From contig CM060731.1 in the NCBI GenBank assembly GCA_030704615.1, positions 89,590,001 through 89,654,000 of the forward strand: DNA of 64,000 bases, read 5' to 3'. Positions 1 through 34,300 of the stretch are shown piece by piece; positions within the stretch are counted from its first letter, which is position 1, and each line of letters opens with the position of its first letter. The notes beneath the pieces were generated by a model. The model was given only the letters and a program-made list of their open reading frames with translations. It ran no database searches and was not told the origin of the DNA. Both the position numbers and the translations under genes were made by a program. Source of the DNA: Takakia lepidozioides. Lineage: Eukaryota > Plantae > Bryophyta.

Positions 1-968
1 TCCTACCGTTTGGGTTGAAAAATGCTCCTGCAGAGTTTCAGAGGGTCATGGATAGGATTCTTGCGGGGCTAGACTTTGCCCGGTGCTACATTGATGACAT
101 CATCATCTTTAGTGCTACGATTGAGGAGCACGAGAGACACCTTCAGATGGTGTTTGAGCGCATGGGTTGAAATTGCACCCTGGGAAGTGCAAGTTATTTC
201 ACAACCAGATTGAGTATCTGGGCCACATGATATATCCTAGAGGATTGGGTATTCAAAAGATGAAGGTGGAGGCCATTGCACGCATTCCACGCCCCATCGA
301 TGTTAGCAGAGTTCGTGCTTTCATGGGATTGACAAACTACTTTCGACAGTTTGTCAAGGGATTTAGCAGCATTGGCAAGGCTCTTACCAAGTTGACCAAG
401 GTGGGTCAGGAGTGGCAGTGGGAGGAGGAGCAGGAGGAAGCCTTTGAGGAACTCAAGGCTCGATTGACTTCTGCGTCTATTCTGAGGCGGCCTATTCGGG
501 GGCGGTCTTTCCATACGGATTGGAGTATGTTGGGGATTGGAGCAGTGCTCACATAGGTGGATGATGAGGGAAGAGAATTCATAGTGACATATGCTAGCTG
601 CTCGAACAATGATGCCGAGGCGAAGTATAGTTCCTATAAAGGGGAGTGTCTAGCTGCAGTACGGGCAGTGACACATTTTAGATGCTACCTCTATGGCAAT
701 CTCTTCACCCTTGTCACGGATCACCAACCATTGAAGTGGTTGATGGAGTCAGACAAGTTTACATGGAAGCTTGCACGGTGGGCACTTATGCTTCAAGAGT
801 ACGACTTCCAGGTGGTGCATCGAGCCGGAATAGTCAACCGAGATGCGGATGATTGAGTCGCAATCCATGCACAAGTGAGCTTGATGATACATGAGCTCGT
901 TGGCATGGTGAGACGGACAAGGAGATGGTACCAGGATGGCACGTATCTGCCTTTTTATGCATTCTAGC
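1..968 (+). mobile_element. Degenerate Ty3/Gypsy pol fragment (RT C-terminus + RNase H), same family as the 9167-19652 element
   Basis: Encodes LPFGLKNAPAEFQR, YIDDII, HTDWSMLGIGAVL and LVTDHQPLKWL, collinear with 12020-13060(-). It has frameshifts and an in-frame TAG at 554-556, and is truncated at ~968. Confidence 0.93.
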
Positions 969-4894: not shown

Positions 4895-5200
4895 GAAATG
4901 GAGCCCTCGTGGACATGTACATGCAAAATGTGGGTGCATCCGAGGATGCAAAGGGAGTGTTCGACAGTATGGCTGAACAAAATGTGGTGTCGTGGAGTGC
5001 GATGATTGCAGGATATGCACAGCAAGGGCATGGGATGGAGGCTTTGGAGACCTATGAGCAAATGATGTCCGAAGGGGTGAAGCCCAACCCGTTTGTTTGC
5101 ATTTGCAATGCATGTGCAAGCCTAGCAGCCCTGGGAACGGGCAAAGAGGTCCATGGTGACATCGTCAAATCTGGAATTGTACCCGATGTCATTCTGAACA
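4895..5200 (+). pseudogene. PLS-class pentatricopeptide repeat (PPR) gene fragment inside CACTA
   Basis: ALVDMY..EDAKGVFDSMAEQNVVSWSAMIAGYAQQGHGMEALETYEQMMSEGVKPN..CNACASLAALGTGKEVHGDIVKSG is a typical S-P-L motif run. It is truncated and frameshifted. Confidence 0.88.
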
Positions 5201-6348
5201 TTGTCCTGGTGATACAGGGTGATGAATTACTTGTGTCATCAAGTTTTGAAATACAGGGTGATGAACTTTTTGACTTGGTTCTTTCCTCTGATTCTTGTCT
5301 ATGAATAAAAGCATTGATTTGCACAGTCATTTCTTGTCACTTTGTTCTTTCCTGTGAATCTTTCCTGTGAATGAGGTTCCTTTGATTCATTGTGACATCT
5401 TGATGACCAGTAGTTGCTACGCTTGGGTGGGTCATGTGGGTTACTGCAGTCAGTAGTTAGATTCACTATAGCAGTCCAAGTGCAGATTACAAAAAGACGC
5501 TTGCACTACTAGGGTTCTACTATATAAGCATTATCACTTTAACACCACTAAACAACCTGCAATCATACATTGACACATGTCATATCCAATAGAAAACACT
5601 TGGCATAGTCTTGGTTTTGACTGTTAAATACATTTAAAATTTCAAAACAAACCCATTATATGATGCCACGTGTCCAGATATTAGCTTGTTTGTAGTCAGG
5701 AGAATGACTGCAGGACCTCCTCATGAGATGCCACGTGTCAATTCCTGCGAGTGCCATATGGCGCACATCCAAAAATCTCCCGGAATTATTAAAAAGAGAC
5801 ACGTGTACAGTTTGCAGCACTAAGTCAAATATGGTAGAAGTACATATGACTGCCAAATGACAGTGAGATGTATCACTTCGCTCATCTGACTCCAGTCATC
5901 CATGACCGACCATCCTGTACTCATTGTATTCACTTGGTTTGCACGACTTGCAGTCATAGCAGTCATATGTACCGTTTATGACTACAAGATAGTCATATAT
6001 ACAGTCATAAATACCGCGATCTGTTGTAGTGATATTCGCTTCGACACTTCAATCATCGCAACACTCTTTTGTAGCACCTATACATGTTCGCTTCAACACG
6101 TCAATCAACGCAACACTCATTTGTAGCACTTATACATATCACTCATACATAGCACTTAGGCCAATGTTGTTAAAACCATTAGTTACGTGTTGGAATTGAA
6201 ACCTTTATATTATCCAAACGACACAACATATATCAAATTCGATTTCAACACCTCAAAATAAAATTCAATTCCAGAATTTATTCGCAACACTTAATATTTA
6301 TTAATACTGACACCTAGGTCAAAACATCAAAACATTAGAGAAAAGAAA

Positions 6349-9166: not shown

Positions 9167-9410
9167 TTGCAACCTCCACAGCCTAAGTGCCCAGCCCCAG
9201 CCCCAGCCAGCGTCATTGCCGTTGTTGCACTTCCCACCGCCAGGATTGCAAGACGGCGACTAACGATGGGGTTGCTCTTGTACCCGGCCTCTTGGTCTAT
9301 AGAGTTTGAGTACAATAGGGACAGTGATAGAGGACTTAGTACGGCTGTGGCTATTACATTTTGTAGCTATCTGGAGTTAGAGGGACCTAACCACCAGCTA
9401 GGGGGGCGAT

Positions 9411-9495
9411 TGTGGTATAGCTTTCTAGGATTGTGTGCTTAGATTGTGTGGTGGACATCGATGTATGTTGTGGCACGATGCTTAGGTGCACGACA
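9411..9495 (+). repeat. 85-bp terminal repeat X, copy 1 (directly after the polypurine tract)
   Basis: TGTGGTATAG...GCACGACA, with 2 mismatches to 9899-9983. Follows AGGGGGGCGAT. Confidence 0.95.
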
Positions 9496-9497
9496 GC

Positions 9498-9897
9498 TGT
9501 CATGGTTTTAGTCATGGTTATCTAGAATTACCTACTTCTAGTTAACTAGGACATTTTAGATATTTATATTTATATTTTGTGTGTTGGGACTTCATTTGGT
9601 CTCACATGCCAAGTGAGGTGTCGAGCCTCACTTGAGACATGGAGATAGGTTTTCCCCTTGTGAGTGTTGAGGAGGTTCATCTTCTTGTAGTTGAGCCTCC
9701 ATGAGCTTCTCTCACCTCCATAGCTCTAGAGGGTTTTGTAGGGTTGATTCCTTTAGCAAAGGTGCCCTTGGCTTGACTTAGATTATCTGATAGAGTGGAT
9801 TTCACTGGGAAGGACTAGGGCTTGTTCTTCATGTGATTGCTTCATGCTTTGAGAGCTTTCATTGTCTTCTACTTCTCTCATTTCTCATTTCTTATCA
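9498..9897 (+). repeat. 3' LTR segment A (400 bp)
   Basis: Matches the reverse complement of 19233-19652. Confidence 0.95.
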
Positions 9898-9898
9898 T

Positions 9899-9983
9899 TG
9901 TGGTATAGCTTTCTAGGATTGTGTGCTTAGATTGTGTGGTGGACAGCGATGTATGTTGTGGCACGATGCTTAGGTGCATGACA
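9899..9983 (+). repeat. 85-bp terminal repeat X, copy 2 (element terminus)
   Basis: TGTGGTATAG...GCATGACA followed by the TSD AAGA. Confidence 0.95.
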
Positions 9984-10064
9984 AAGATTATAATTATTCA
10001 TCTTGTGTTACAATAGAGCGAAGTCCTTGGAGAATTAATTCACATCATGAATATATAATGTTAA

Positions 10065-10257
10065 CTACAATATCCAAATACACATCACATAATGCAACCC
10101 AGACAAAGACATTATGCATGGTCCCCCCCTCATATGCCCCAACCCAACAAAATCCAACATCTACACAATCAACGGTAGTTTTGTCGGGTCTATCTCCAAC
10201 ACGCGGCTTACTTGGCTCTGGTACAAATACTCCACCTCCACCACACATATTAACCAG
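10065..10257 (+). pseudogene. N-terminal continuation of the PCIF1-like relic, displaced by inversion
   Basis: CNPDKDI..NIYTINGSFVGSISNTRLTWLWYKYSTSTTHINQ joins in frame to QLQPPKQDF (7091 down) through the shared CAG target-site duplication of the CACTA. Confidence 0.7.
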
Positions 10258-10443
10258 CACTACATGAAAAGGGGAGGGGTTTTCGACGTCGCGGCGTCGT
10301 AAAACAGCCCTTTTCAGGCAGGGGGGAAGAACCAAATTTGCGACGCCCGGGCGTCGCAAGCCCGTCGCAAGGGCGTCGCCAAAAAAACGTCGCAAATTTG
10401 CAACCAATGGAGATCGCAACGGCGTCGCCACAGGGGGTCGCAA
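10258..10443. mobile_element. Second CACTA element, displaced opposite terminus
   Basis: CACTACATGAAAAGGGG at 10258 preceded by CAG, with the same TGCGACGCC/GGCGTCGCAA subterminal repeats. Confidence 0.85.
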
Positions 10444-10536
10444 TGGTGTTGTGGTCAGCTTAGGTCATCACAAGGATGTCACTTGGGGCTTGGCCTTGCA
10501 TTTCTTGTTAGCCTTCCATGGTTGTATCCACTCCTA

Positions 10537-13500
10537 CTATCCAATGCAATGCGGACATAACCAATCCCCATCAGGAACCATCTCAAGAGGTGGAGTCAAG
10601 CATCCCATATGCCAACCTCTAGAGCATTGATCACACACCAGCATGGTGGTTGCCCTTCTAGCAGACCCACACAACATGCACCTCAAACATGCAGGTACCA
10701 CTGCCAGGTTTGGGTCAACCCTTCCATCAACATTTGGAAGGTGACATGGCGCGCAATTACGCACATGGTCCTTCCAAATCATGCCATCTCGACCCTCCAA
10801 GATCAGGACTCCTGAGGGCAACACCTCTCGAACCCTCAAAATAGTACGTCCTGCAGTCACATCCAAGGTCGTAGGAGCAGTTTGTTGCAGATAAACATAG
10901 TCACCAAGGTTAAATCTCCGAACCCCAGGACGATAGCCCCCACCACGTATGGTAGCATACCTCAACGTATCACGATGTTGTGCAATGACAAGGTTCTCGA
11001 AAGCCATGGGCATGACTTTCTTGAACAACTCTGCACGCTGATCACATGTACGTGCCCACATGTCCGGATCGTCAAGGTTGAGAACTGTAGTAGCTTCTCT
11101 ACGAATGGATGCAGACAAATCCGGCTCTCGGCCAAAGAGAAGAAAATATGGTGAGAAGGAGGCAAGTGATGCTTGCTTGCTAAACTTGTAGCCCATGGCT
11201 AACCAAGGTAACTGAAGGTCCCAATCTCCTAGGTGTCCCTTCTGCAAGCCATATTTGCGCAAACCCCTCTTCACTGTCTGAACAACCTTCTCTGCCAAGC
11301 CATCGGCCTCAGGATGATCCCGAGAAGTGGTGCGGTGGTCTACCAAGGCCTTGTCACACAATGCCTGAAACTCCCCCAAGAACTCTCTCCCTTGGTCCGT
11401 GAGTACCTCAGCTGGAGCACCGAATCGGCTAAGTACACAATCCAAGAATGTATACGCAGCTCCCTCACTAGCCTTATCACGCAATGGAACCAACTCGATC
11501 CACTTGGAGAAGTGCTCCACCATCACCAACACGTATTTGTTGTGGCGCATGGTCAGTGGCAACGGCCCTGCGAAGTCAAGACTCCACCTGTAGCCCAATC
11601 CCATGATCGGAAGAGGGTGCAATTGTGGAGTAGGGGCGTTGAATGAAGCATGCACCCTGTCACACACCATGCACCTAGCCACAAATTGTTGCACCTCTGT
11701 GTGCATACCAGGCCACCAATACTGCCCATGCAGTAGACTATGAGTGCGTCGCACCCCAAAATGCCCCAACTCCTCATGGGCATGCCGCACTAACCGTGCC
11801 CGCTGTGTTGGGTGAGGCACAATCCTCACTCGATCAACCTCCCACACTCGGAGCAGGTGTGTCCCCTCCCACTTGAACCTCTTGGCTCGTTGTAGGATCC
11901 GATCCATCTCCTTGGCAGTCACAGTGGCTGCCGTGTCTCCAGTGCGGAGGTAGTCCAACACAGCTGAATCCTCATGTATATCTTTGGCGCCACCTTGCTC
12001 ATTGCTGGCCTCAGGGTCCTCAGACACTCGGTCTACAGTCATCCCTGTTGTAGGTCCAACCTGGCCTTCCGCTGCCAAGATACACAGAAATGCAGATGCA
12101 TGCCATCCGGGCACCATCTCCTCGTCCGTCTCACCATGCCACCGAGCTCCAGTATCATTCTGCTGGCTCGTGCATGGATTGCGACTCAACCCATCTGCAT
12201 TCCGATTGACCAAACCCGGTCGATGCACAACCTGAAAGTCATACTCTTGAATGATGAGTGCCCACCATGCAAGCTTCCCCGTAAGCTTGTCTAACTCCAT
12301 CAACCACTTGAGTGGTTGGTGATCCGTTATAAGGGTGAAGAGATTGCCGTATAGAAAGCACCTAAAGTGTGCCACGGCCCACACTACAGCTAAGCATTCT
12401 CCCTCATATGAGCTATACTTAGACTCTGCAGCGTTGTTCAAGCGGCTAGCATAAGCCACTACGAACTCTCTTCCCTCATCATCCACCTGTGTGAGCACCG
12501 CTCCAAGCCCCAGCATGCTCCAATCTGTATGCAGCTGAAAAGGACGCCCCCTGATAGGTCGTCTCAAGATGGGTGCCGAGGTCAACCTCGCCTTGAGCTC
12601 TTGAAAAGCTTGTTCTTGCTCATCTTCCCACTGCCACTCCTGGTCCACCTTGGTCAGTTTGGTTAGAGCTTTTGCAATGGCACTAAATCCCTTAACAAAC
12701 CATCTATAATAGTTTGCTAACCCCATGAAAGCTCGAACTCGGCTCACATCCGTGGGGCGTGGAATCTGTGCAATGGACTCTACCTTAGTCTGCTGTACCC
12801 CCAATCCTCCAGGATATATCATGTGACCCAGATACTCAATTTGGTTGTAGAAAACTTGCACTTCCTCGGATGTAACTTCAATCCGTGCGCCCTCAAGCGC
12901 TCAAATATCACCTGAAGGTGTCTCTCATGCTCCTCCACCGTAGCACTAAAGATAATGATGTCATTTATGTAGCACTGAGCAAACTCCACCCCTGCTAGAA
13001 TCTTGTCCATGACTCTCAGAAACTCTGCTGGAGCGTTCTTAAGCCCAAATGGTAAGAACCGCCACTGGTATAGGCAATCCTTCCTGTGCTCATTGATCCC
13101 CCAGAATGTCGTCTTCTGCTTATCCGCCTCCTTGATCGGCAACTGGTGATATCCGGATCGTAAATCCAAAGTGCTAAAGACCTTGGCATGCCCAATGACA
13201 TCAAAGATCTCTTCTGGTGTCGGCATGACATACCTATCGGACTTGGTCTGACGATTTCCAGGCCGGTAATTACCGCATATACGTCTCTCCGTCCAATTGC
13301 CATAGACATCATTCTTGGCTGGCATCACTGTGGCTGAAGCATACTCTCCCCCAGATAGCTCCACCAAACCAGCCTCCCAAAGGTCCTGAGTTCTCATCTG
13401 AATCAAGGACCTCTCCATGTCACTGTATCTATAGGGTCTCCGAAAGATTGGCGTGTCAGTAGCCAATTCAATGCGAATCTCTTGACCCTTCAGTGCTCCT

Positions 13501-13544
13501 AAGTCCTTCAAATTGAAGGCAAAGCAGTTCCTGTAAGCCCTCAA
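10537..13544 (-). pseudogene. Gypsy RT - RNase H - integrase - PHD finger
   Basis: RT: FSTLDLRSGYHQL, PFGLKNAP, YINDI (YIDD mutated). RH: HTDWS, TDHQPL. INT: HEELGH..CMVC, SLDFAG, LTDQG, GLAEK. C-terminal C4HC3 PHD CMLC..CDQC..H..C..WLCPHC. One frameshift at ~12850. Confidence 0.95.
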
Positions 13545-13984
13545 GAACCGCCGTATACGTCGTCTTTCTCCTCCGGTGACTATAGGTCCAACATTAGGCT
13601 CCCAGTTGTCCTCCGTGACTGCAACCTTGAGTCCAGCAGGCTTAGAGGTAGAAGACGCGTCCCGTGGTTGCTATGCTGCAACCTCTTGAGCAGTGACCAC
13701 TGCCTTCTCTGTCAGTGACAATGTCTCATCCTACCCCATCATCCCATCCTTGAGGACCTCCTCAACCCGAGAAAAATCCCCAACCTCATCCATCACGGCC
13801 GCCTTGGCTGCCAACTCATTTTGAACCTCGAGCACCTCCCACGTGTGCCATAGATATGGCCTGCACCTTGTGGTCCTCATCTGTTCGCCCCCACTCGCTG
13901 CCTGTACCGTCTCGGTAGGTAGGGAGACCATCAAGGGAAGTGTACTCTGTACTCTGCGCTGCTCAGCCATAGCCAAGCTGATAA

Positions 13985-14920
13985 TCCAGGTCAAGCAATT
14001 GAGATCCATTGCTTGCCCCAACACCTGACGACGTGATGCCTCAGAAAGAGATGGCACCGCCATGGTACCAGTGGTGAAACCCATTGCCCGTTCGCGCTCG
14101 TCAGCATTGGGCTCCACTGACTGCTCCAACTGGCTATCCCACAAGAGGCCAGGTCCACCATCCCGGAAAGCATGAGATCCTGGAAAGCTGAGCAGTGTAG
14201 GCAATGCTGCTCGTGGGTGACCCACCTTATTGACCACTGCCAAAGGTGATCGGTCATCGTGTCTCACACGCTAAGACTGCCTCCCTATGTCCAAAATGCT
14301 ATCCACCGTCAAGTGGCCGCTGCACCCCATCAAATGCACGCTTGAGCAATGCAGGTGGCATCAAGTTGGTCCACCATAGTCGTGGGCGATGAGCCCGTGA
14401 CCCCACTGCAACTGCATCCAGCAACACTGTTGACCCAAGCCAAGACCGCACTTGATGTACACTGGCCATCACCTTGGCCCGAGAATCACCCATCAATGGC
14501 ACATTCTCCAAGATATATGCCGGAGAGTCTGTCTGCTGAAGCTGTAAATAGCGCAGGACCCTCAACATCTCCCAAAACAGGCGTGACTTTGAGTCTTGTA
14601 ACCCATTGCCATACCCAGCTGATGAAAGCCCTTGGCAGGGCCAACCTGCCACTACTAAGTGAATAGGGCCAACCCGCTCCAAATCATGCGCCCCCAGCAA
14701 GGAGATGTCTGCTGGCAAGGCTTGTTGGTATCCACAAACTGCAGACACTGGCAACAAATCAGGGTACTGCTGCACCAACTGAGCAACATGGCGTAGTGAG
14801 ATACGTCGTGCAGTCTCATCCCTCTCCACATATAGGTAAAGTCGAACTCGTACACCTGCCTACAGCACTGCAGCCAATCCAGTGTTAATCCCGCCAAACA
14901 AGTCTAGAAGGCATATGCCT
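13985..14920 (-). pseudogene. C5 cytosine DNA methyltransferase domain within the Gypsy polyprotein
   Basis: Motif I LLDLFGGINTG, motif IV VAGWPCQGLS (catalytic PC), motif VI ILENV, motif VIII HRPRLWWTN, and motifs IX/X ERERAMGF...VLGQAMD, all in canonical order. Two TAG stops and one frameshift. Confidence 0.93.
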
Positions 14921-15200
14921 TCATCCGGGCACTACCACAAAAGAGGTGTGATGTCCAATGGCGACAACTGAGGTGGTCGTGGTGCAATCACCGCACTCTC
15001 CTCCTCTCCTGACGGTACAAAGGCCTCTACCTAGGTTGTTGCACCCGTCTATCAGCAGCCTGCTGCAAATCCTTGCTCGTACCCCACAATGGAGTGTGAG
15101 CAACCATGGCAGACAACTGCGCCGTACCATGCATGTCATCCTGCTCTGCTGGAGGTGGCACATCCTCTGCATGGGCATTGCCATCCAGCAACTCTCCAAG

Positions 15201-17903
15201 TTAACTAACTGCAGCTGTGAAGGCTGCTAGTGTTGGCATCTTGCTCCGTTGGGCAGCAGCAACACCCCCAATGAATGTCACAAGAAGTTGTACACGCCGA
15301 CCATCCCCTGACTGCCATCCAGGCCTGTAGGATGCCGACTCCTCCCAAAAATCCAGGGTGAAGCCCATGGGATACAACACTGCCCCACCAACGAGGACAT
15401 CGTAAGAGACCGCTTCTGCCACAATGGCCTTGGCTCGCATCACTGAGCCATCTATAGGATGATCCGGCTGTAGTCTAATGGCCAACTCACGCCGTGTCAT
15501 GCCCCGAGCCTGCTCTGATCCTCCCAGAGATGTCTGTATCTGTAAGGGACAAGGCTCCATATCCGCCTCCATGAGGCCCAAACCTGCAATAGCGGCTTTG
15601 CCCAACATCAGTGGCTGAGCTCCCAAGTCCAACAAGACCCGCAGTGGCCGGTACCTCTTGCCTGCCGCTCCACTCAAAGAGAAAATGCCATCCTGGTTGT
15701 CTAACAAGACAACTCGAGGTGTCACCATGGCGCGCTCAAAGGCTGGCCTAGCTGGCAGCTCCGTCAACCTGGCAGCTGCAGCTTGCCATGGCGCAGTCGT
15801 GGCAGTCTTGACCCTCAAATCCGAGGATCTCTCTGCCACTACACCTTCCACTAACTCCGCAGAAGATGAAGTGACCTCCCCACTCTCACAGAGTGTTGCT
15901 GCTAGTCTGAACACTACAGCTGGTCTTACCCCCGGCGTCGCAATCATGGTTGCCGAGAACAGTGGGGCCTGACACACAGAGGTGGCCGCCCCCAACAACA
16001 CACTGGCTGCACTAGCCTTGGCAGCAGGTGTCAGTGCTGCACGTGTAGCTCTTCCCAATGGCACAATAACCTTCGCCTCGGTATCCGTGGGGCGAGAATT
16101 AGGTGCCATGGATGTCGTCGACACTGTCTCCGCCAAGATGAATGATTGAGGCAACCTAGCCTGACGGCTTGCCTCCCCACGTTGTGAATCCAACTCCACC
16201 TCTGCACCTCGTGGCTCAGGAACTCGTGCTGCTCCTCGAGTGATGGCTGCAGCAGACTCCACCTGCACTAGTGGTAGTGCTGCCCCACACATAAATCCCA
16301 TGTCTCCTCCGTCAGGATGACGCTGCTGAGGAGGAACAGGAGGTGGACCCTCAGGTCTTGGAGCAGGTACCACCTGAGCTGTGGCCATGGCAGCGAGCCT
16401 TTGCTCTAGCTGCTGAAGCCGGTTGGCCATACCTTGGTCAACGCCCTGACCTCCACGTCCTTGGCCATACTGTGCTGCACCTCGTCCTGCACCTCGTGCC
16501 TGAGCACCTCGTCCTCTTTGAGGTGCTCCACCTCGCCCTCGGCCACCATTGTTCCCTTGGAACTGGCCTCGCCGCAACTCAGGGTGCAAGTCATAACACC
16601 GGGCATCTCCATGCCCATACTTGCCACAATGCCCACACTATAACTGTGCAGGCTGTGCTTGTGCCGGCCCTTTGCCACTTTCTGGGCAATCTTTCTTGAC
16701 ATGAGGTCCTCCACATGTCCAACATACCACCCCTGGTTGCTGTTGGCCTGCAAAAGAAGATACTGGCCTCTACACCTGAGGTCCCATGTAAGCTCCATGG
16801 AATTTGGGTTGGGCAACCTTGCCCCCCTGACCACGCTATTGGGCAGTCCCTTGTACCTGTTGGCTGGCAGCTGCGCCTCGTGCAGACATGTCCTTGCCAA
16901 ATCCAATGGTAACAACTCACTCCTCCACCATGTTGAGCTCAATCCGCTCAGCCAGCAGAAACACATCCGCTAATGTGGGTTGGGCCGCTTGTAACAGGGT
17001 TGCATCCCGCACCCTTCTCCTGAGCTCCTTGTCCAAAATTCCATACTAGAACTGGACTGCCTGAGCTTCAGTAACCCTTTGGGTCACACTTATCAAGCGC
17101 CTCATACGAGTGTAGGCCTCTCGCAAGCTATCACTGGATTTGCGCTGGAAGTCTTGCAAACTTCGCAGCTTCTCTGTCCGTACACCTTGGTAGTTCCTCC
17201 GCAACTCCTGGAAGAACTCCACCACTGGGTTGAATCTAGGCACATGTGTTGTAGTCGTGGCAGGAGGAGTAGTAGCACCTTTTGAACTGGTACCACCTGC
17301 AGAAGTACGGACACTACTTGTTCCACTACTAGTGCTTGTAGTTGGAGATGTTTGTATAGCTGCTGGTGTCACCGCTGCCCTTGTGCCTCTAGTAATTGAG
17401 ACATAGTTAGGTGACCAATACTCTCTCACTCCTCAATCTCCACCGCATGTCCCCGCCTAAATTCATGGTAATCATCCATGGGCGGCCCCTCAAGGTGCTG
17501 GAATAACCCCTTCCACGCCATAAAGGGCGTAAACAGTTGTGGATTGCGTATTTGCTGCAAATCATACCAACTGTCAAACTCTTGTATAAAGTCATCAAGC
17601 TCGATGGTGCCCACAGCTCCAGAGTACCTACGTGGCCCCTTGGTAGCTCCATACATCTCCTCCATCGTGTCCCACAACAATGGCACGGAAATGACTTGCA
17701 CCCTCGGCAAGAATCCTCCTGACTCCGAGTCTGAACCTTCCTTAGAAGACACTGAAGGTGAAAGTGGCCTAAACCGCACACCTCGTCTTGTGTACCCACT
17801 AGTATCGCTGGTGCTCGTACCGGCACTCCCCTCAGCAGCTGGTGGCACCTCCGTGATGAAAACTCACAACCCAATCGGTTGTCAACCTGTCTCTAATCCC
17901 CAT
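15201..17903 (-). pseudogene. Gypsy gag (two zinc knuckles) and aspartic protease
   Basis: Capsid-like ELDDFIQEFDSW and FQRKSSDSLREAYTRM. Knuckles CWTCGGPHVKKDC and CGHCGKYGHGDARC. Protease site VLLDLGAQ. Several stops and frameshifts; the start is uncertain. Confidence 0.85.
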
Positions 17904-19220
17904 TTTCTAACAGAGGTATAGTCTGAGCATACACTACTAGGGTTTGTAATGAAGAGCTAGAATGCAAGTCCTTGACTTCTATGCTTCTACTCAAGCAAAA
18001 ATATGGTCTCTAGGTGGTCATAAGAGGGATCTTCTTGCTCTCTTCCACCCCAATGTGCAACCAAGAGTGGTCCAACTCAACTTGCAAGTCATTGTCCACC
18101 AAATCAATCCCCCTTCTAGTCCTTGGGATTTGATTGCAAACTACCATATCTCCATTGCCGAGCAATCATGCATTTGTCTCCTCATCACTTGACAATTGCT
18201 CCAAATCAACACAAATTATCTTAATGTGTAGGAGCAATGCTTGTCACTTACAATAATGCTCCCAAGCAATCCGCCTTGGATCCCACTCTCACGCCATATG
18301 CCTCATTTGGGGTCTCGCACCAATCCATCATCCATGTGCTCCCCGTGGTCATTTGAATGCATGTTCCATGACCTCTTGGCCTATGTGTTGCTCTCCTTTA
18401 TCATAACATGAATCAACACCTCTCCACTTCACACACAAATGGATCTCAAAAGCCTTCACCTCTTCCTAGTTCAAGAGCTCCCTTTCTCAAACTTGAACTT
18501 ACAAACTTAAGCGAGCATGCTCCACACATGCACCACTTGCTTGGTCAACTATCCACCACAAAGCTCGCACTACCAAGAGCATGAATAGCCAAGTATTGCC
18601 TCCCCCTCTTACATTACATAGTTAGGGTGAAGCTATGCATACATTGAATGATGATTTCCCTTCAAGGATTTCCCACCACATGTTCTCCAAGCCCTTCCAA
18701 TGGCACCCTAAGCTTGGCTCCACACCACCATGATTGGAAGATTTCTTCACATGCTCCCTTTCAAAACCTCTTGAGCTTCTTAGTGCTCTCCAAGTGCTTG
18801 CCCTTGTTGTCTTCAAGCCCAAACATATATAGCTCATTGGCTTTTCTTCCACAACATCCACACTTTGAACTTGCTTAACCCTAGCTTGATAGTGAAATGA
18901 GCACTAACAAGCCTTTAGTCACTCTCCACAAGCCATGGCGCACACCATCGACTCCATAATGCATATAAATGATTCTCAAACCCTAGAATCCATGCTTCCA
19001 CACACATAAGACTTCCTCCTTACAATCCTTGCAAAATCTTGTGACTCAAGAGCTTTCTTCTCAAGCTCTCCAACTCTTTGGTGCATGCAATACTCGAGCA
19101 CCTTTCCTTGCAACCCCTTGCAAGCCTTGTGATACAAGAGCTAAATTCTCCTAGCTCTCAACCTCTTTAAAATACAGTGCAAAACTAATCCTTACAGTCC
19201 GCACTCACAAGCATAAGGTG

Positions 19221-19232
19221 ATCTTCTTGTAG
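19221..19232 (-). promoter_or_regulatory. Putative self-priming primer-binding site
   Basis: CTACAAGAAGAT lies immediately 3' of the 5' LTR and is perfectly complementary to ATCTTCTTGTAG inside the LTR (19461-19472). It lacks the TGG of a canonical tRNA PBS. Confidence 0.7.
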
Positions 19233-19652
19233 TGATAAGAGATGAGAAATGAGAGAAGTAGAAGACAATGAAAGCTCTCAAAGCATGAAGCAATCACTTG
19301 AAGAACAAGCCCTAGTCCTTCCAAGTGAAATCCACTCTATCACATAAACTAAGTCAAGCCAAGGGCACCTTTGCTAAAGGAATCCACCCTACAAAGCCCT
19401 CAACACACTCCCTCTCAATACCTAGAGCTATGGAGGTGAGAGAAGCTCATGGAGGCTCAACTACAAGAAGATGAGCCTCCTCAACACTCACAAGGGGAAA
19501 ACCTATCTCCATGTCTCAAGTGAGGCTCGACACCTCACTTGGCATGTGAGACCAAATGAAGTCCCAACACACAAAATATAAATATAAATATCTAAAATGT
19601 CTAGTTAACTAGAAGTAGGTAATTCTAGATAACCATGACTAAAACCATGACA
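19233..19652 (-). repeat. 5' LTR segment A (420 bp, TGTCATGG...CTTATCA)
   Basis: Near-identical reverse complement of 9498-9897 apart from a ~21-bp indel and scattered substitutions. TG...CA ends. Confidence 0.95.
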
Positions 19653-22600
19653 TCTTTCAAAGAAATTTGAGATTGTGGATATGCATGAGATCCGCTATTA
19701 TTTCGAGTTCTAGCTATCTTGTGTTTTTATTTGAACAAATGTAAATATCCTAGATTTGGAAACAATGAGCAGTGGACATGTACAAGACTAGATATCGTAT
19801 AAGCTAAAGTTGGGGTAGTAGTTCATTCAAGTGAAAAGAGACAACACCCACATCGGAAGAGGCTCCTATCTATCCTAGCTTCAGCTAACGTCATATATAT
19901 ATACTATGGTGATGACAGATCAATTGTATTATGAGATTTTAGGAGATAGGGTTTAGGATTTAAGCAAAAGTATCAATGACAAAAAAATATGCAAGAGTAT
20001 TTATGACCTTGTCAGTGTTTGCAACGACACCCATTTTCGGAGCTTTTCGGACGTTCATGACCACCCAAATTCAAATTGAGAGATTTTGAGGGTCTAAAAG
20101 ATCTAAGTGCGTCCTACGACAGCTGGTGGATGAAGTTTCTACCTACCAATTGAAAATGGATAATATCTTTCGTCATCCGTGAATAATTGGATATTCCATC
20201 CATCAATGTTTTATTGTTTTTCTATATAAAAACTTTCAATCCAATATCCCAACCACTCTATTGTACCCCAAAGCTGACTTCTTGATGCTCGAGCTAATTG
20301 TACCATTTGTCAGCAAGAAATATATTCAGATATTGTGACTATCATGGTGACTCATCAATATTTTTAGTCCAATATACATCATGATAGCCACTGACATTTG
20401 TGATGTTCTGAGCAATGTTATAGACTCTATGCACCATAGCTTGGTCCAAATGACCATTATCAATACTCCATCCAAAACATAGACCAAAGTCAATTGTTGC
20501 AGATCAGCAGCCGCCTAGATCCATGATTCGGAAGAATCCTATGGACTAGTACACAATTGGATTTAGTTGTTAACCATGTCCCTACAACAAAGGAGTGGGA
20601 TATCCATCAGAAACCATATGTTAGCTCCAAACATCTCCCCCCTTAAGGACCATCAACCAAGCTCCGCTCCATATGACACCAACTTCTTGGTGCAAGTCAG
20701 AAGTATTATTGCCTGTTTTGCAAATCTACGCCATTACCTCATCCAGTCTGTTCATCAAGTCATCCGACAATTCCATGGTTGTCTGGGCCATGTTTAATTG
20801 CCTTGGATTGGGGCTCTCTTTCAAAATGCTTTGTCTCATTGCAATTGAGACATATGCTCTTTGGCATTGCTTGCTGAGACCCATCGTGTCTCCACACTTA
20901 TGATTTTCTTTTCGAGCCTCCACAGTTCTGTTCCAGGTGGGAAGTTGCCTTTAGCTTCCAATCTACATTTTTGTCACATGGCTTATCCTACTTATCCTAC
21001 TTCTCTACCGGATAGAAAGAATCACGCTCCTCTTGTGGTTCCTCTTGTGGTTCGATTCCGAACGGTTGGGCAAGACGGACAAAAGGTACAAAGACAAAAT
21101 CTGGACCGTCTATAATGTCAGAAGTTTTAGATCTAGAATTGGGCCAGTGTGATATATGTATAAAAGGGAAACTGGTACCCCAAGCGACCGCTCACAAACC
21201 AGGCCCCTAAGTTATAAATAAATAAATACACTAACACCAGTAGTAATGATAATATATGACACCTCCCCCAGGTGCATCAAGCCTGCGGTTTCATAATTTT
21301 TGGACGACAGATTGAATTTCAAGTATTTTTGTCACTGGAAATTCATGAAAAGACCCGAGTCTTTTGTAGTAACTTAGTTGCGCTCAATGCACACTGAGCC
21401 ACAGTAGTATGTATTTATGGTTCCAAGTAGGTGTTTTCCACGGAACAGTCAAAATATATCCACTTGGAGGAACCAGAGGAGTCAGAAGAGGCCGATCCAA
21501 AGGGAAGCAGCCTGCAGAGAAGCACTGAGGTCCATGACTGTACTATATGACAGTTGCTGTATGTGAGGGAGCCTGCCTACCATCTCTTCAGTGAGGAATC
21601 TTGACTCTCTGGGGATACCACTCCTGGCTACTCTATTCACTCCATGTCAACTGCAGGTAGAAAAAGATACAAGCCACCTGGATAAATAAGTCCACCATAG
21701 CTCTCACCTGGGTTGTATGGAGCATACAAGAGAGGAGAGGGAACGGGCTTGGGAAGAGCACGACATCGCCAAAGCCTTGTGGTTGTAGTATAGAAACCAA
21801 CTCTGAGATTACCGAAAGCCCCCTAGTGATGGAATGGAGAGTGTATTAGGAAGATGTGTATGTGGAGCTGCCTACATGGGCATTGTAGTGCCAGAGGTGC
21901 TACTGATCCTTTCCAATCTGTCTTGCACTCACAGAAAGCATTGGATGGAAGGGGCATGCATTAACCTTCCTAACATAGGTGTAGTGTTAGCCTTTCCATC
22001 TATTGACATGGAGAGAAGAATCTTTAGTGTGCCGGTTGTCTAAGACAGTTGTTTTAAGGAATACTGTTCACCGCAGGCCATTTTGCTGTGCGAAGTCATT
22101 CAACAAAATAAAAAAAGGAAAGGTGTTGCTATAGTTGCACGGGAGGGAGACAAAAGGGCAGGAACAAAGTTATCCATCTGTGTAACAGCTACAGAGGGTT
22201 GATGACCAGTTGATCGATGGTAGTCCAAACTTGCAAGTAGGAGAAGTCTCAAATGAAATGCTAGCATAGATATATCACTCACTAGATATCCCTGGCATAG
22301 TTTTTCGAGGCAGTTTAGGATTCCCAGTTTGCTAGGTTCTCAATTTCATATATGATCTTTCTAAGCATTATCCCTAATGCACATTACACCTACTCATGCA
22401 AGAGCTGAAGGCGACAAAGACCTATATGAGGTCATGGAGAATCATTTTTGCTGGTTTCCTGATGCCTGCAAATTTAGGTGGCATGTGCTCTTGGTAGAGT
22501 GTGTTCAAAGCCTAAACAGATGACCAAAAACTCCTTGGTTATGCTACAAAATGTCCTGGCAAGCTCTGCCTTAATTGCTTCTCTTTGGATCTGGAGCTTC

Positions 22601-22844: not shown

Positions 22845-24052
22845 CTAGGCCCCACCTGCACCCTTTCCTTTCTTCTTCTGAATCTTTCTCTGGTAAAACT
22901 CAAGCTCCCTCCCCTCCAATATGTACCTGCCCAAGTCCCACACCAATACCCAGGTCAGCCAATCTCTTCAGTGATGCAGTTCATCTGCTTGCATGACGGC
23001 CTTGGTGTACAGACCTCTTGAAAAACCTTATGTTGGCATGAATTCAAATTGGTTGTGGCATTGTCAAACCGCAATACATACCCATCTGCACGGCCGCACT
23101 GTCCAGGCCGAGATGCGAGACAGGCAAACAACCTGCCACTGGCAAATTGGTCCTCCAGATGGGGATCCAGCTTCTGGCCCTCCTGCCTCTTGGAGACTTT
23201 GCGTTGGACATGGTTGCTCGCCTTTTTCTCCTCCTCCCCAGCCACACCCTCCTGTGCAATAGTGAACGCATGCCAAACCATATCCTGAGATCAGAAGGTG
23301 CAGGCACTCCTATACCAATGTAAAGATGACGCAACAACAGTCTTCGGGACCACCTTCTCCAGCTACTCTTTACGCTACTGCACACCAGTAAGTGGTGGGT
23401 ATCTCTACCCCCTTGACAAGACCCCCAAACGTTAGAACGCCTCGCTTGCAGAGGAAACGGAGAATATTTACCTCAGCACTTTCCTTCTTGGAAACAGCCA
23501 CCTTCTTCTTCTTGCCAATGTCAATATTGTAGTGCTGGTTGTACCATTGACGGAAGGGGGCAGCATCCACCTGGACGATGGCGTTCTTCACGAGCGTTTG
23601 AGTGCGCACAAGCTCATTGTTCGACGAATTGTAGACCACGTCCAATATACGAACCTTGCGAGTCACAGCCTCGGACCCCCATGAAAAGTTGCCCGTATCG
23701 AGACGAAGTGCCCGAAACTTGAAGTTACCTCCACGCACTCGAATGCCCCGCACTGTCTTGTTGCTCGACAGCTTGGTCATCGCTGGCTGCCTCCCGAGCT
23801 CGTACCTGTCCAGAACCACCAGCCCTTCCTCAGCCCCCATCACGAACATGCACCGAATTTGAACTCACCGATGCTAGGTCCATTCAGTTTCCATCACCAG
23901 CTGTTCTCTCACTTCAGATTGGAGTGCCCCTCAGTCTGATTGCTTCATACACTACAGCAAACAGCACACACTTACTTGCGCTTCTTGCGCCATGACTTCT
24001 TCTTGCCTCCAGTCGCCCGTCTCTTGTGGGTGGAGTCCCGCGAGATACCCAT
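22845..24052 (-). CDS. RPS8: 40S ribosomal protein S8 (eS8); exons 24052-23976, 23805-23472, 23251-23082, 22926-22845
   Basis: [82 protein letters not shown] introns preserve the frame. Confidence 0.98.
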
Positions 24053-25373: not shown

Positions 25374-28300
25374 TCAATGCACTATGTAAACAAGATCGCC
25401 TGCTACCAGGACGTCAGTGGGAACAGGGTTAGTGTAGACATAAGAGACAATGGAGCCATTAGTACCCACGGGCCGATAGAGGCCTAAAGCCAATGCATTG
25501 TCATTGTGTAGCATACCCACGAACAGCTCTTTAAATGTCCGGCCCACATAATACTTGGGTACTGCCAATTGATCAAGCTTTCGCACCACTATCGGTTTAC
25601 TGAATTCATCTGCCTCCGGAATAGTGCCTCCCCAGATCAACTGATCCACTATGGTCACTGTCTGACGGTTGTAGAAAGTTGAATACCTGCAAAAAAAAGA
25701 AAAACAAGGGTGTTGTGAATGGAAAGATTTTATTGTAACATTGAAATGAACTAGTCCAAAGCAACAACCAAAACCACTCACATTAGGACTCCAAGAGCTG
25801 CAGGACAAAATCCTTTCCCCTCGATGTAAGCAGCTGCAAACTGGAAGGTGGCTGCCCGGTGGCGGCGGTACATCTCATTGTCAAAAAGGCGCCGATCAAA
25901 TGTCCATGTGGGCTGCAAGTACGGAATTTCTGTCTCTTCCCGCAATTCTACTGAAACACGGCCCCTTGATGGACGCAGCAGCCGCTCCACCTGGCATGTC
26001 AGACCAAGTCCATGGATTCACTAAAGCAGAAGATGGTCAGAGTTAATCACAAGCCCACCTAGTTTCAAAGCACTTCCATCATACTGCACACTTTAACACA
26101 TCTTAGGTCCTACCTGCTGTTATGCTACGGATGCAATGACAAGAATGATCTGTGAGGATGACAACAGTAATTTAAAACTTCAAAAAATTGTCCCAACAAA
26201 GATGGAGAGTACTTGAGATAGAGCCACGTGTGTTGGTAGCACAAAACGTTGGCAATCTGCGTTTTTGAACTGACTTGTAGATGCTGACATTGCTTCTGTG
26301 AGTGACAACAGCTCCCCAGACTTTTTGACTATCTAAGTGGGATATACAAGTACCAAAACCTTTGCAGAATGTGACAGACCAGATTTCACAAACAGCAACC
26401 GTGCACTCTCTCGAGACAATCAGAAGGAATTTTCTCAGTTTCAACCTGCAGTCTATTGCATGTCTGTAACAAAGTTGAGTAAAAAGGCATAGCTACCGTT
26501 GCCGCGATAAGCACATTGTTCACGTCGAGTGTAAATAATTTCAATGAAGGTGTTAGGTGGTCATCATCACTCGCAATCTCCAGCACTGGTTGCTCTATCT
26601 CGAAGCCCTGGGTCAATATCACCACCTTCTCTGCTACAACATACACATTCCACTGAGGATGTAACTGCGAGGAAAAACAGGCGACTCAGCATCCTGCCTA
26701 GCCCAAGAATGGAAGTTGAGGAGTACCTGAGAACTGCTACACTGGACAAGCAAATTGTGTTGGTAACTTCTACGAGAGAAATCGTTCAGTACAGGGCCTA
26801 CTGTTCATACACCCATCAGCTACATAGAAGACATGATTCAATTAGAGCTTAACCGGTTGCGTCAAAACCTGCTCAAAATTTTGGGGTGAAGTATCGTGAA
26901 GAGTTCCCCCTTGCCAGCACAGAACAAAGTTGATCAATTAAAAAACTTCAAGGGACATAGATGTCTGTTTAAGGGTAAAAGAGAATAACAGATTCCTGTG
27001 GAATGAGGACGCACCTGCTTGCAGTACCCCGGCCCGCACCAAATCTAGCTCATAGATAGGACACCCTTTTACAAAATAAACGTCCTCGTAAAAGCCAACG
27101 CAGCCCCAATCAGGAGCACTGGGCTCTTTCGGGTGCAGAATTACGATTGCTGGGTTGGGCATGACAGGAGTTCGCAGAAGTGACACAAAGTAGAACAGAC
27201 TAGTGGGCCATTGGCCCTGTATACACAGCAGTACATGGGGCACCTGGAGCTTGACTACATTCAAAGTTCGTTCCTTCAGGTTTTCCTGAATTTCCTTTGC
27301 TCGTCTTTCCAGGATTGGGGGATCGGGTTTGCTGAACTTCTGAAGAGGAGGCCAGCTCATAGTCATGTTGATGGCCTCCTCTAATGAGACTACGCCTTTG
27401 ATCGCTAACCGGGGTGTATCTGAACTCTTCCTAGAACTTTCACTATCGTCTTCACCGGTAGAAGAGGTCGATATAAAATGCTGAAGGTGGTGCGTTGGCA
27501 CATTGCTTCCCCCTACAGGTTTCCCCACTGACCCAGTTAAGGACTCCCTGAACTGTGTCAGTTCGAGGTCAGAGCTTGTCATCGAAATTTTGTGGTCCAT
27601 AATATTGGTAGTCAATCCATCTTGTTTGGAAGCTGTTGGTTCACTCCTTTTGACTTGTTGCAACAGATTGTCTTCCTCTGACAGTTTTTGAAAGATTTTT
27701 TGGCGAAGACAAGGGACAAAGTGCCAACCACACCATGGGTGTAGGCTATCTTTCCCAAATTTTGACACCTGTTCAGCAGTCGGCAGGTCCTTCGCAATGG
27801 CCAAACCAACATCTGTGCCTTGTATAGCACGTCCTCTTGGATAGAGAAGCACTTCCCGCAGATTTTCTTGGTCATCAATTGAAACATCAAGACCAAACAG
27901 AATGACACTGTATCTGAGGTACACCAGTTCTGCAGCCTGTAGGAACTGTCCCATTCAGATTACCACCATACTAATCTTTTTCATTGGCTCCTTTCATCTG
28001 CTTTTGTTGAAACTTGGACTACACGATTACCCAGAGTTCTGTGCTTGTCTCAACAGCACAGGTAGCTGGAAGTTCCGAAGGTTTAAAAGTACCAGGGGGC
28101 TTAAGGAACTGAACATGTTTAGAATTCACAGATATCAGTATGGTCATTCATGAGCAACAGAGACTTAGACTGGATTTTGGGAACATATTATTCAGGCCCT
28201 ATCCTAAACTGATTTCCATCACCAACCTCTTAGTCCTGGAAGATACAAAAGCTGCAATTATATTTCGAACAGCCCAGGGCACCAGACAGTAGTAGACGGT

Positions 28301-31300: not shown

Positions 31301-34300
31301 ATCAAAACCACTATAATTTCTTCTAAAAGGCACTCTTTGAATACCCAGCTGGTACAGATATAGATGGATAGATGCATGTACCTGCGGGAGGCAAGCTGCA
31401 AGATGTGGTTTATTTGGGCAGGTAAAATCACCAGTGCTCCGATGATGGTACACATAGCTACAAACCTTCCCCACTGGGAGCTGGGTGTGATATCCCCATA
31501 GCCAACAGTAGATATCTGTGACAGCAGCAAAGTGCCATCAACGAATGCTAGACCAAATTGTAGAAGGTCACCAATGAAGAACATTAAATGATATAGCTTT
31601 GTTGAAAACCATATGTAGTACCTAGAGCAATGGAGAAACCCAAACTTCACCAAAACAAGAGGACGCCCCACAAAGTTTTGGATCTGCTAGACTAACTTGG
31701 GGGGTTGGAAAGACGACCCACCGTAACAATCATGAAGTAAAAGGCATCATAAAAAGTCCAGCAACCCCAAGGGGGACACCGCTTGTCTTTTTTGACACTA
31801 GGTGGAGTTGCCCTGTTGTCCACCCACTGTAAGATGCCAGCCGCTATGAACACTGCACAACACTAGACGCTTCAAGGTTACTATCAATTATCAAGCTATT
31901 TGTAGTTTGCCTTTATCTACCCTTCATGCAAAAAAATCTATATTCCCTTGATAAAACAGATGGTATCTACAAAATTGCATTGCACTCTTTTTTCTTATAA
32001 TCAAGTTGACTTGGACCGAATTTCTGACTTCAAAAAAAGTAGAGTATGCAAGAGATTACCACAGTCTAAGACCAAAAACGATGAATTGCTAGGCTTGTTA
32101 TATGTGAGCACGCACGCATATCCAGCCCAGGACTAAGATTCATACCCACTCCAAACGTGTACATAGCAAGAATAAAAATCTGTTCTTTGATGGCAGACCC
32201 CGTAAGCCCCGCCACTGAGGTAATTAAGGGCGCAACTCTACGTCAAAAGCATTCCAACAAACTGGTCAGCAACTCGATTTCATTCATTAAAGTACAAATT
32301 GTCATAGAGATAAATGTGAAAAGTCTCTGAAGCCAACTCTCGAATCTCAATGGGCTTGCTCACATGGGCCTGACAACACCTATTTAAACCAATAATGTTG
32401 AGAAAGCAAAGGTTTGAATAATTTCTCTACACACAAGTTAGTTAGCAACGATCTTTGTAGATCAGATCCGAAAGGCCTCTTCAAAACATCACTTCAGAAG
32501 TCACCAAAACAACGTAGATATCACCTTAAAACACGAAAGAAGAGCAGTATAGCAGCGCCATTGTCCTTCCGGGAGCTGTGTACACATTCCAAATGCAAAA
32601 CATCATAACTCAATTACTCTTCTGTTAGCATTCAACGTTCCAGGGCTGTCCCCTGCTGCAAACACTCTCGACTTGCAAATGAGATGAAACCACCAAACAG
32701 CACTAGTCACATTTGTGGATTAATAAAATTAATTGATCTGTAGAGGTGGTGGGTGTGGTGGTGCACCTCCAGTATACGATAATAGGAAGAGTGCTGATGA
32801 GATCGACTATGCCAGTGCCTGACAAGATATAGTAAAGGCGAACAGGCGCACTGCGGAACAAACGTAAAAAGTCGCAATGAATATAATAATCTGAACTAGG
32901 TGTTATACACTCCCGGGCTTACTTTTTGGCAATTGCATAGAGGGAAGGTGCTAATGTGGCAATGTTCTACCTTTAGTCTTTTACAACCATTCCAGCGAGA
33001 TAACTACTGCAGGAAGCGAAACTGGTCCAAATATTACCCTACGCCAAACTTTCAAGTGGTAAGTTGAGGCAATTATATAAGGCCCCTTTCAAAATCACCT
33101 TATTACTGCTCTCTGTTCTCGGCATATCGCAAAACATATCGCAGCGCTTAAGTTACCTTACAGTCAAGATGGAACTAGGGTCACAAAGCGGCCCGATACC
33201 TGTAGAGCTTAAGGAGATAATCCACCACAAAGAATAGCCCACATGATAGTTCCACGATCCTGATCCAGTCCTCTGTTACATCATGTGTGTATCTGCTGGC
33301 AACAAACTTAGCTAGTTACTATATGTACATAGATCTATCTATAGTGAGATTTTACAGCATTCTGAAAACTGTGAACAGGGGCAACCCTGCCATATCGGAA
33401 TTGCTGTAAGACAAGTTTGTTCACGCCAAAAAGAAGCTGGTAGTTGAAATATGAGTCACTCGGACTAGGAAATAGAGGGACTTCATGCTGAAGCTGCTGA
33501 CAAGAGGCACGCTAGGACCGTTCCAGCTGGATCTGAACCTGTATTTAGGTGACAAACGCATACACATACTTTAGAAGTGAAACTTCAGTCATGTTACAAC
33601 AGACACTTACGTTGATTGTACATAGAGAAGTACTGATGTCATCGCCGCCAGAAACTCCAGCTGCAAGCTGACAGGGAATCTGTTACCACGATAACTTGAC
33701 AACGGATATTTCGAGCTCGAAAATGAAAATTCTTGATGCTCTATAGAAGGGCTTTCAAGAACAAGTAAACACAGCAAATCTGCGCATGTAACGCTCTACT
33801 TCACCCGCCATAGGAAACCACTTCATGCCTTGTACAACTGCACCTGGACAGCCAGGTCTCCATAACTAGTGATCAATGCTGAAACGAATCACCTGCTTTG
33901 ACAGATAAAAATTTATCCTTTACTGCAAGGAATTACGACATCTACAAATATAGACTAATTTGATTGCTCCGTAGGACGAAATAAAACGTACAAAACATGT
34001 ATATAGAGAGAGCATTAGGAGGTAAGAAGAAAGCCATATAGTCCATGGATGTCCAGAGATCCAAGTAGGCCTCACCCAGTGTAGTAAGGAACTCAGCGGT
34101 CCTTCACGAATGGCGACTCGCACTTTGGTTGTGAACGGTACTTTCCCATACAAAAATGAGTCGTGATACGTTGAAAGAACATCCTACATTCAACTCTAGC
34201 AAAAACAACCTTTGAGTCATATGTCTACTTGATAAAGTCATGCTTGTCCAGACACCCCAGTGACATTGGATGCTGATTTCCAGCTATCACCATAGGATTC

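Follow-up and report, generated by a model that had tools for sequence, protein, structure and literature searches.

A Gypsy retrotransposon with a DNMT3-like domain, an integrase-fused PHD finger and split repeats in Takakia lepidozioides

What does a retrotransposon do with a DNA methyltransferase of its own, and how does an element whose terminal repeats are split enter a chromosome? Both questions are raised by a Gypsy element in a 64,000-nucleotide (nt) stretch of Takakia lepidozioides DNA (contig CM060731.1, positions 89,590,001 to 89,654,000; the whole stretch is called the window). A first-pass annotation had placed the element at 10537-14920, with a C5 cytosine methyltransferase (DNMT) between protease and reverse transcriptase (RT) and a PHD finger ending the integrase. 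By means of profile searches, phylogenetic trees and comparison with metagenome loci, we find that the copy is almost certainly a dead member of an old green-plant Gypsy lineage with a DNMT3-like domain and an integrase-fused PHD finger. The family is real, selected and widespread, and the anatomy of its ends makes a route of integration through circular DNA testable. Taken as a whole, our explanation, which joins this identity to a likely insertion from circles and to roles for the DNMT and the PHD finger, is one that we favour slightly.

The element and its split repeats

The element lies on the minus strand at 9410-19652 of the window. The earlier interval is thus correctly placed within it but falls well short of its extent, the 5' end being at 19652 and the 3' end at 9983/9410. 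A Pfam scan and motif positions give the polyprotein order gag-protease-DNMT-RT-RNaseH-integrase-PHD, which is the Ty3/Gypsy order with a DDE integrase. The TG...CA ends, the 4-bp target-site duplication (TSD), the polypurine tract and a predicted self-primer site are also those of a Gypsy element. Coordinates are collected in Table 1.

The most unusual feature, missed in the first-pass annotation, is the arrangement of the ends as split repeats, A-internal-B-A-B, and it provides the anatomical basis for the idea of a circle. A1 and A2 are 2.0% divergent, with one 21-nt and one 1-nt indel in addition, and B1 and B2 are 2.3% divergent. The two bases GC separate B1 from A2, while A2 is fused directly to B2, a joint that is seen also in sequencing runs X1, X5 and X7. 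In run X1, 37 contigs pass from the B end into unlike flanks.

A metagenome scan yielded 151 loci, the best 80 of which were kept. Among ten metagenome insertions with both ends, seven have a perfect 4-bp TSD, two have one mismatch and one has none. The 22 distinct 3' ends comprise five of the form B-A-B, eleven in which the polypurine tract is followed by B and then flank (one at a contig end), five with B after deletions, and one that is cut. B precedes A in none of the 22 metagenome 5' ends, so no ordinary provirus with two complete direct long terminal repeats (LTRs) is seen there. The bodies of A and B cannot be aligned between the window and locus L046; the polypurine tract, the start and end of B and the start of A are conserved. 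The same B-A-B layout and palindrome recur in a second PHD-bearing Gypsy family, whose proteins are about 52% identical (L063, 14592-17198; L034, 379-2033); its B is about 157 nt long and its palindrome is fully T-containing, with CATGAC at both B ends in L063. When A and B divergence was compared in four loci, the within-element values were equal to or slightly below the between-element ones, too weak a difference to show that B2 is recopied each cycle. At 9414-9417, many contigs of runs X1 and X2 share the tract and the first bases of B and then diverge; they represent subfamilies of one host that differ in the B repeat.

The window copy is dead, as had been noted at the outset. It carries 12 in-frame stops (10 of them TAG) and four frameshifts, and its RT has LDLRSGY at 13169 and YINDI at 12971, where 34 of 52 rows in the relatives' alignment read YIDDI. 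In the window copy alone, the block 9244-10487 with the element's 3' end has been inverted; in runs X5, X7 and X9, 9244 is joined to 10488 on opposite strands. One breakpoint of the inversion lies in the 3' region of the retroelement and the other beside a CACTA end, and the element lacks about 41 nt there. The 5' leader has no open frame of 130 or more amino acids (aa) between 17922 and 19220. The gag is 82% identical to the N-terminus of Marchantia protein P0008. For the protease there is no Pfam match within the window itself, and the placement draws on relatives, 3 of 11 of which match Pfam Asp_protease (P0203, P0245 and P0251). Contig depth summed over the element is far above that of the flank, a measure that does not amount to copy number. 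Run X7, which has another organism label, contains the element at about 94% identity over 9244-19652, near single-copy depth and bounded by a separate 4-bp TSD (GCTC, taken from loose ends); the alternatives are a close relative, a mixed sample or horizontal transfer.

The methyltransferase, the PHD finger and their relatives

Judged from its sequence, the methyltransferase is of the C5 type, DNMT3-like and integral to the polyprotein. The full motif set claimed earlier was located: the Pfam DNA_methylase match covers 14302-14859 on the minus strand (E 1e-10), and motifs I (DLFGG, 14904-14890), IV (WPCQ, 14643-14632), VI (ENV, 14508-14500), VIII (HRPR, 14391-14380), IX (ERERAMGF, 14099-14076) and X (RRQVLGQAM, 14033-14007) follow in unrearranged order between the protease-like LLDLGA and RT. 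Against solved structures, the top matches of the DNMT profile are all DNMT3A/B (E 1e-21), followed by DRM (6e-11) and HhaI (2e-7), and a predicted structure of modest quality (predicted local distance difference test score 61, 10 sequences) also matches DNMT3 first. WPCQ is present in 63 of 81 rows of the relatives' alignment and ENV in 74. Between the window and the loci, the nonsynonymous divergence (dN) of the DNMT is 0.20-0.26 and the synonymous divergence (dS) is above 2 or saturated, giving dN/dS of 0.08-0.12; the corresponding values are 0.07 for RT, 0.08 for the integrase and 0.29 for the RNaseH-integrase linker. The comparison indicates purifying selection on the DNMT as strong as that on RT. 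Among 149 distant relatives (P0095-P0243), motif IV reads WECQ in 67 and PCQ in 34, an unusual change adjoining the catalytic Cys.

The C4HC3 finger that had been reported at the end of the integrase is likewise found by Pfam (Table 1); it occupies the position where chromoviruses have a chromodomain, and Pfam gives no Chromo match there. It has the C4HC3 spacing, an L-x-C-D strand, a G-x-W pocket and no aromatic cage: of 54 fingers scored, 48 have Gly at the position of the cage Trp, which precedes the zinc His by two residues, and the cage Trp is absent. The closest solved structures are those of CHD4, PHF12, KDM5A/B PHD1, DPF3, ATXR5 and PHF21A. The fingers of CHD4, KDM5 PHD1, DPF3, ATXR5 and PHF21A read unmodified H3K4, and a rule ties such cage-less features to binding of this state (H3K4me0). 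In sequence the finger resembles the H3K4me0 readers, and we predict that it binds this state. Its place on the integrase would give it a role comparable to that of the chromovirus chromodomain, and we lean, by a little, towards its guiding insertion.

It is important to point out that the DNMT and the PHD finger lie about 3.3 kb apart, and processing by the protease would likely leave them on different products. Many retrotransposons have PHD fingers, as described in PMC6673714, PMC9940879 and bioRxiv 2021.11.30.470311, and a dedicated pair of writer and reader is therefore not implied; such a partnership, which the first-pass annotation had proposed, is unproven. A cluster of PHD-integrase proteins is also found outside plants, mostly in molluscs (Atlas).

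We now turn our attention to the relatives. A search with the DNMT fragment returned 41 longer proteins, most of them 60-76% identical, and those with names come from Marchantia polymorpha, Calypogeia fissa and Sphagnum. In the best 80 loci, RT is on the DNMT strand in 58 and a PHD finger is on that strand in 25, in the order of the window; in trees the metagenome loci group with the Sphagnum proteins. When 1.84 billion representatives were searched with a profile, 579 proteins scored at E <1e-30; domains were mapped in 162 proteins, namely 149 profile matches and 13 earlier ones. The order RT-RH-DNMT-INT-PHD (RH, RNase H; INT, integrase) is found in 37 of these and 20 further partial forms end in PHD, while the DNMT precedes RT, as in the window, in a smaller set. 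Thirty proteins were looked up, and the names among them are Scenedesmus (DNMT after RNase H), Cymbomonas, Closterium (4) and Calypogeia; Klebsormidium nitens is not one of these names, and the nearest named algae are Closterium. Among viral contigs, 62 pattern matches included no relative.

Closterium and land-plant elements with the DNMT ahead of RT are united in a single clade of the DNMT tree (FastTree local support 97-99); in the RT-RH-INT tree the sole complete member of algal type groups with land-plant elements. The simplest reading of these trees, which were built without an outgroup or host DNMT3, would be one old capture in green plants and one relocation of the DNMT domain. By sequence the family is found in chlorophytes, zygnematophytes, mosses and liverworts. 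The expectation that a land-plant host would extend the known range is thus borne out for mosses and liverworts.

Circular DNA as a possible route of insertion

The order A-internal-B-A-B is a circular permutation of a two-LTR circle opened at B-A, and A-internal-B is that of a one-LTR circle. On this basis, a mechanism can be proposed in which the RNA would start inside A and prime itself on the site just after A1, as predicted for Tf1 and Tcn1. Since this predicted self-primer follows A1 and a polypurine tract precedes B1, the reverse-transcribed LTR is likely B+A; with the plus strand starting at the tract, the cDNA would be BA-internal-BA. Its ends would then join, giving at A2-B2 the terminal CA of A against the start of B, or a one-LTR circle would form. 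The DDE integrase would cut the palindromic B-A site with a 2-nt stagger, discard the two spacer bases and insert the DNA; a two-LTR circle would leave A-int-B-A-B and a one-LTR circle A-int-B. Before insertion, the newly made DNA may be methylated by the DNMT, co-packaged with RT, and the PHD finger may bind unmodified H3K4 and tether the integrase away from active promoters.

The priming step has support of its own. The longest match in 200 shuffles was 10 nt, compared with 13 nt in the window. In 8 contigs of run X2 the A end is followed by the same primer-site sequence. The loci have a different sequence that pairs likewise, about 20-30 nt downstream of TATAAA (10-17 nt in 11 of 23), so that both partners of the pairing have changed. 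For the Tcn1 and Tf1/Sushi groups, PMC6317226 also predicts self-priming. For the cut, the B-A site ACA-GC-TGT looks like a circle junction opened with a 2-nt stagger, and cleavage of a palindromic circle junction by a DDE integrase has been reported for foamy virus (PMC1180852). We consider it fairly probable that the element inserts from circular cDNA cut inside the LTR by its own integrase. The wider proposition, that throughout the clade the attachment site has moved from the cDNA ends to the LTR-internal palindrome and circles are the normal way into the genome, we regard as just on the credible side.

As to the substrate of the DNMT, new cDNA is the likeliest because the enzyme is made together with RT, and de Mendoza et al. 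argued likewise (PMC5890265). Whether the DNMT acts on the element's own DNA is, in our estimate, an evenly balanced matter. A bolder possibility links the two halves of the mechanism. The end of B reads CACGACA in 17 of 30 distinct ends, with deamination products in 11 more, and the A side reads CATGACA; a methylated C at this CpG would mimic T and so perfect the palindrome. The joint proposal, that circles are the norm and that the DNMT3 domain licenses or chooses the cut site through methylation of the B-end CpG, is improbable, and the CATGAC at both B ends of the second family (L063) neither supports nor refutes the mimicry.

Several observations weigh against the explanation as a whole. 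In 12 of 23 loci, which are decayed copies, no significant self-primer is found at the expected place. The mirror isomer A-B-A-internal-B occurs in 0 of 22 metagenome 5' ends, although a two-LTR circle has two B-A sites and random cutting should yield this isomer about as often; it might collapse faster via its longer repeats, or the two sites might differ, for example in methylation. Copies of the form A-int-B can also be obtained by recombination between B1 and B2 or by assembly collapse. The dN/dS among the loci themselves, which are dead and decayed, is 0.4-0.75, synonymous sites are nearly saturated in the comparison with the window, and partial redundancy means that the loci are not independent (63 distinct at one threshold). 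The observed/expected CpG ratio of the element is 0.49, against 0.45 for a long interspersed element (LINE) and 0.38 for a host gene region in the same window; depletion is no stronger than in these and gives no sign of self-methylation. Finally, the K. nitens DNMT was translated in yeast without DNA methylation, a result that its authors call inconclusive (PMC5890265).

The rival that comes closest on the ends needs no closed circle: RT would jump from the A end to the start of B and recopy B, and the integrase would process a linear A-int-B-A-B. This would account for the absent mirror isomer and for the clean end-to-end join at A2-B2. The left B, however, would still have to be removed exactly at the palindrome, which calls for an internal cut, and A-int-B copies with intact TSDs (0-1 mismatch in four of the five polypurine-B copies with both ends) are explained more simply by a one-LTR circle; we judge the linear route unlikely, if the strongest competitor for the ends. 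The same order of repeats, A1-B1-A2-B2, is the hallmark of Ngaro, PAT, VIPER and TATE according to PMC6681497, which raises DIRS/Ngaro-type integration by a tyrosine recombinase acting in trans. No tyrosine recombinase was found by Pfam among the nine open reading frames (ORFs) scanned, while the DDE integrase is conserved and under selection and the TG...CA ends with varied 4-bp TSDs fit DDE chemistry. This rival is very improbable and largely refuted.

For the two chromatin domains, the alternative is that the DNMT is kept for a role other than on cDNA, such as binding of DNA or RNA in the particle, methylation of target or host in trans, or restraint of the element for the host, with the PHD finger as an independent targeting add-on. 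The inactivity of the K. nitens enzyme in yeast, the prevalence of ECQ over PCQ in the distant relatives, the two different positions of the domain in the polyprotein, and the PHD-integrase clusters outside plants and in Gypsy-7a_cRei would all fit this. Against it, the catalytic Cys, ENV and RxR are kept and selection is as strong as on RT, and the related SymbioDIRS-Dnmt3 domains methylate CG de novo (PMC5890265); we hold it possible but doubtful. A DNMT nested here by a single insertion, or a layout that is an assembly artefact, might be suggested by the broken state of the window copy and its inverted 3' block. The same order in Marchantia and Sphagnum proteins, the RT on the DNMT strand in most of the loci and a 5.0-kb contig with another organism label that spans from the DNMT through the PHD finger to the 3' region leave this practically no chance. 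It is ruled out by the order shared across relatives, in which the DNMT is moreover under purifying selection.

Known systems, host and neighbouring features

The core design has been known since 2018, from KnitGypsy-Dnmt3 of K. nitens (de Mendoza et al. 2018, PMC5890265), and the land-plant variant is what is new here. As published there, that element shares with ours an intronless DNMT3-related domain in Gypsy Pol with intact catalytic motifs, purifying selection on it (Ka/Ks <0.2, compared with 0.08-0.12 here between lineages and 0.5-0.6 among decayed copies) and, in the legend of Fig. 4c, DIRS-like repeats A-coding-B-A-B with Gypsy domains. By this published description, the difference is an alga there and a land plant here. 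In the text of PMC5890265 the term PHD does not occur, and neither a TSD nor a priming site nor a mechanism behind the repeats is described. The capture is called specific to the K. nitens lineage in that paper, whereas the relatives found here span chlorophytes to liverworts. Domain order, PHD or a wider range may be contained in its supplements or in those of the 2026 preprint cited below.

The ends A1-internal-B1-A2-B2 are shared with Ngaro, PAT, VIPER, TATE and SymbioDIRS-Dnmt3, the last of which carries a DNMT3 too (PMC6681497, PMC5890265). Split-direct-repeat elements are described in PMC6681497 as using a tyrosine recombinase, whereas the window element has a DDE integrase, Gypsy RT/RNase H, a polypurine tract and a 4-bp TSD. 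The Tcn1/Tf1-Sushi chromoviruses, as presented by Neumann et al. 2019 (PMC6317226), agree with it in Ty3/Gypsy order, predicted self-priming, a chromatin reader at the integrase C-terminus and non-seed plant hosts; they differ in that our element has a PHD finger in place of the chromodomain, an extra DNMT and permuted LTRs. That survey, as described, kept only elements with two ordinary LTRs and would likely miss this family. The algal REM1 and Gypsy-7a_cRei also have a PHD finger in a Gypsy element and a proposed insertion bias, with an excess of intergenic insertions for Gypsy-7a (PMC9940879, PMC6673714); the legend for Gypsy-7a_cRei, on whose published description we rely, names no DNMT. 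The EpiLTRs of Cymbomonas and Euglena likewise combine an LTR retrotransposon with a cytosine DNMT and a chromatin reader, but the DNMT is DNMT4-related and comes with DAM and a chromodomain, and the preprint treats a 'streptophyte Gypsy-DNMT3' as a separate capture (bioRxiv 10.64898/2026.05.21.726589). Published DNMT-carrying retrotransposons come from algae. The review PMC6338049 says that land plants such as tracheophytes lack transposon methylases, and the passages of PMC12344493 and bioRxiv 10.64898/2026.05.21.726589 that cite or echo the 2018 work mention 'streptophytes' and name no land plant. In the literature outside subscription journals and Repbase, we found no bryophyte description, nor any mechanism that would combine split repeats and a DDE integrase.

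For most retroelements an LTR circle leads nowhere. The permuted ends suggest that a retroelement with a DDE integrase makes use of such circles, an idea that is old and contested for retroviruses. Since Marchantia polymorpha has DNMT retrotransposons, a tractable plant whose methylome is known is available for asking how a transposon benefits from a methyltransferase of its own. There are also consequences for annotation: LTR finders that need two terminal LTRs would miss the clade, and DNMT fragments of the element can inflate DNMT3 counts in bryophytes. The prior report from K. nitens, the dead state of the window copy and the still putative activity of the encoded enzymes are to be discounted from this.

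The host, which the first-pass annotation had taken from the flanking genes to be a non-seed land plant, is likely a moss by the evidence of one neighbouring gene. This is an intron-rich BK/Slo-type potassium channel gene at about 25400-34900 (minus strand), which is deep-branching with the mosses. Its longest exon is 39-47% identical to moss, liverwort, lycophyte and gymnosperm proteins. In a tree of clean exons with 14 of 29 rows (named or full-length only; one gene, no hornworts, paralogy possible), it groups with mosses (99), outside Sphagnum and Physcomitrium, and approximately unbiased tests reject placement with vascular plants (p 0.001), two liverworts (3e-5) and Sphagnum (0.002).

Table 1. 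Coordinates of the element's features and of an adjoining transposon end in the window
Feature	Position	Strand	Evidence or remark
4-bp TSD, 5' copy AAGA	19653..19656	-	identical letters at 9984-9987
Repeat A1, 420 nt, TG...CA, element 5' end; likely U3 part, R, U5	19233..19652	-
Predicted RNA 5' end and self-primer, a 13-nt stretch in A1	19460..19472	-	complementary to sequence just after A1
Predicted self-priming primer-binding site	19221..19233	-	no tRNA-type TGG after A1
5' leader, about 1.5 kb	17666..19220	-	covered at high identity in runs X5, X7
gag, broken, CCHC-like knuckle at end (16637-16596)	16590..17665	-	Retrotrans_gag E 0.003, under curated cut-off
Aspartic protease region, LLDLGA 15635-15618	15260..15760	-	BLAST to relatives
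DNMT3-like C5 cytosine methyltransferase, motifs I to X	13960..14931	-	stops 14862, 14273; frameshift near 14313
Reverse transcriptase, YIND replacing YIDD	12855..13604	-	RVT_1 E 7e-26
RNase H	12241..12630	-	RT_RNaseH E 8e-33
DDE integrase: H2C2 finger, core (D 11574 region, D 11397, E 11292), C-terminal region	10700..11811	-	Integrase_H2C2 E 1e-16, rve E 2e-13
C4HC3 PHD finger and stop codon	10537..10680	-	PHD E 3.4e-10; final 45 aa of 787-aa RNaseH-integrase ORF
3' untranslated region with polypurine tract (~9396-9409), inverted here	9244..9409	+	inverted joint in runs; 53-nt match to locus L046
Repeat B1, 86 nt; likely U3 start	9410..9495	+
Near-palindromic B-A junction CACGACA-GC-TGTCATG, predicted integrase cut site	9489..9504	+
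Repeat A2, 400 nt	9498..9897	+
Repeat B2, 86 nt, fused directly to A2 end; element 3' end	9898..9983	+
4-bp TSD, 3' copy AAGA	9984..9987	+
CACTA-like transposon end within inverted block, outside retroelement	10258..10487	+	termini at 10258 and 7092 share subterminal repeat

Elsewhere in the window, an RT/RNase H fragment at 1-962 (plus strand) belongs to a related Gypsy subfamily and is about 80% identical to 12080-13057. A fragment of a pentatricopeptide repeat gene lies at 4897-5304 (plus strand), an exon of ribosomal protein S8e at 23370-23864 (minus strand), and a weak match to a Ptta/En/Spm transposase at 38489-38935 (minus strand). A LINE with endonuclease and RT occupies 58847-63391 (minus strand), and an internally deleted second copy at 51410-52648 is 99% identical to it and therefore recent. 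A dispersed repeat family of 94-120 nt has four to six copies in 30046-44454.

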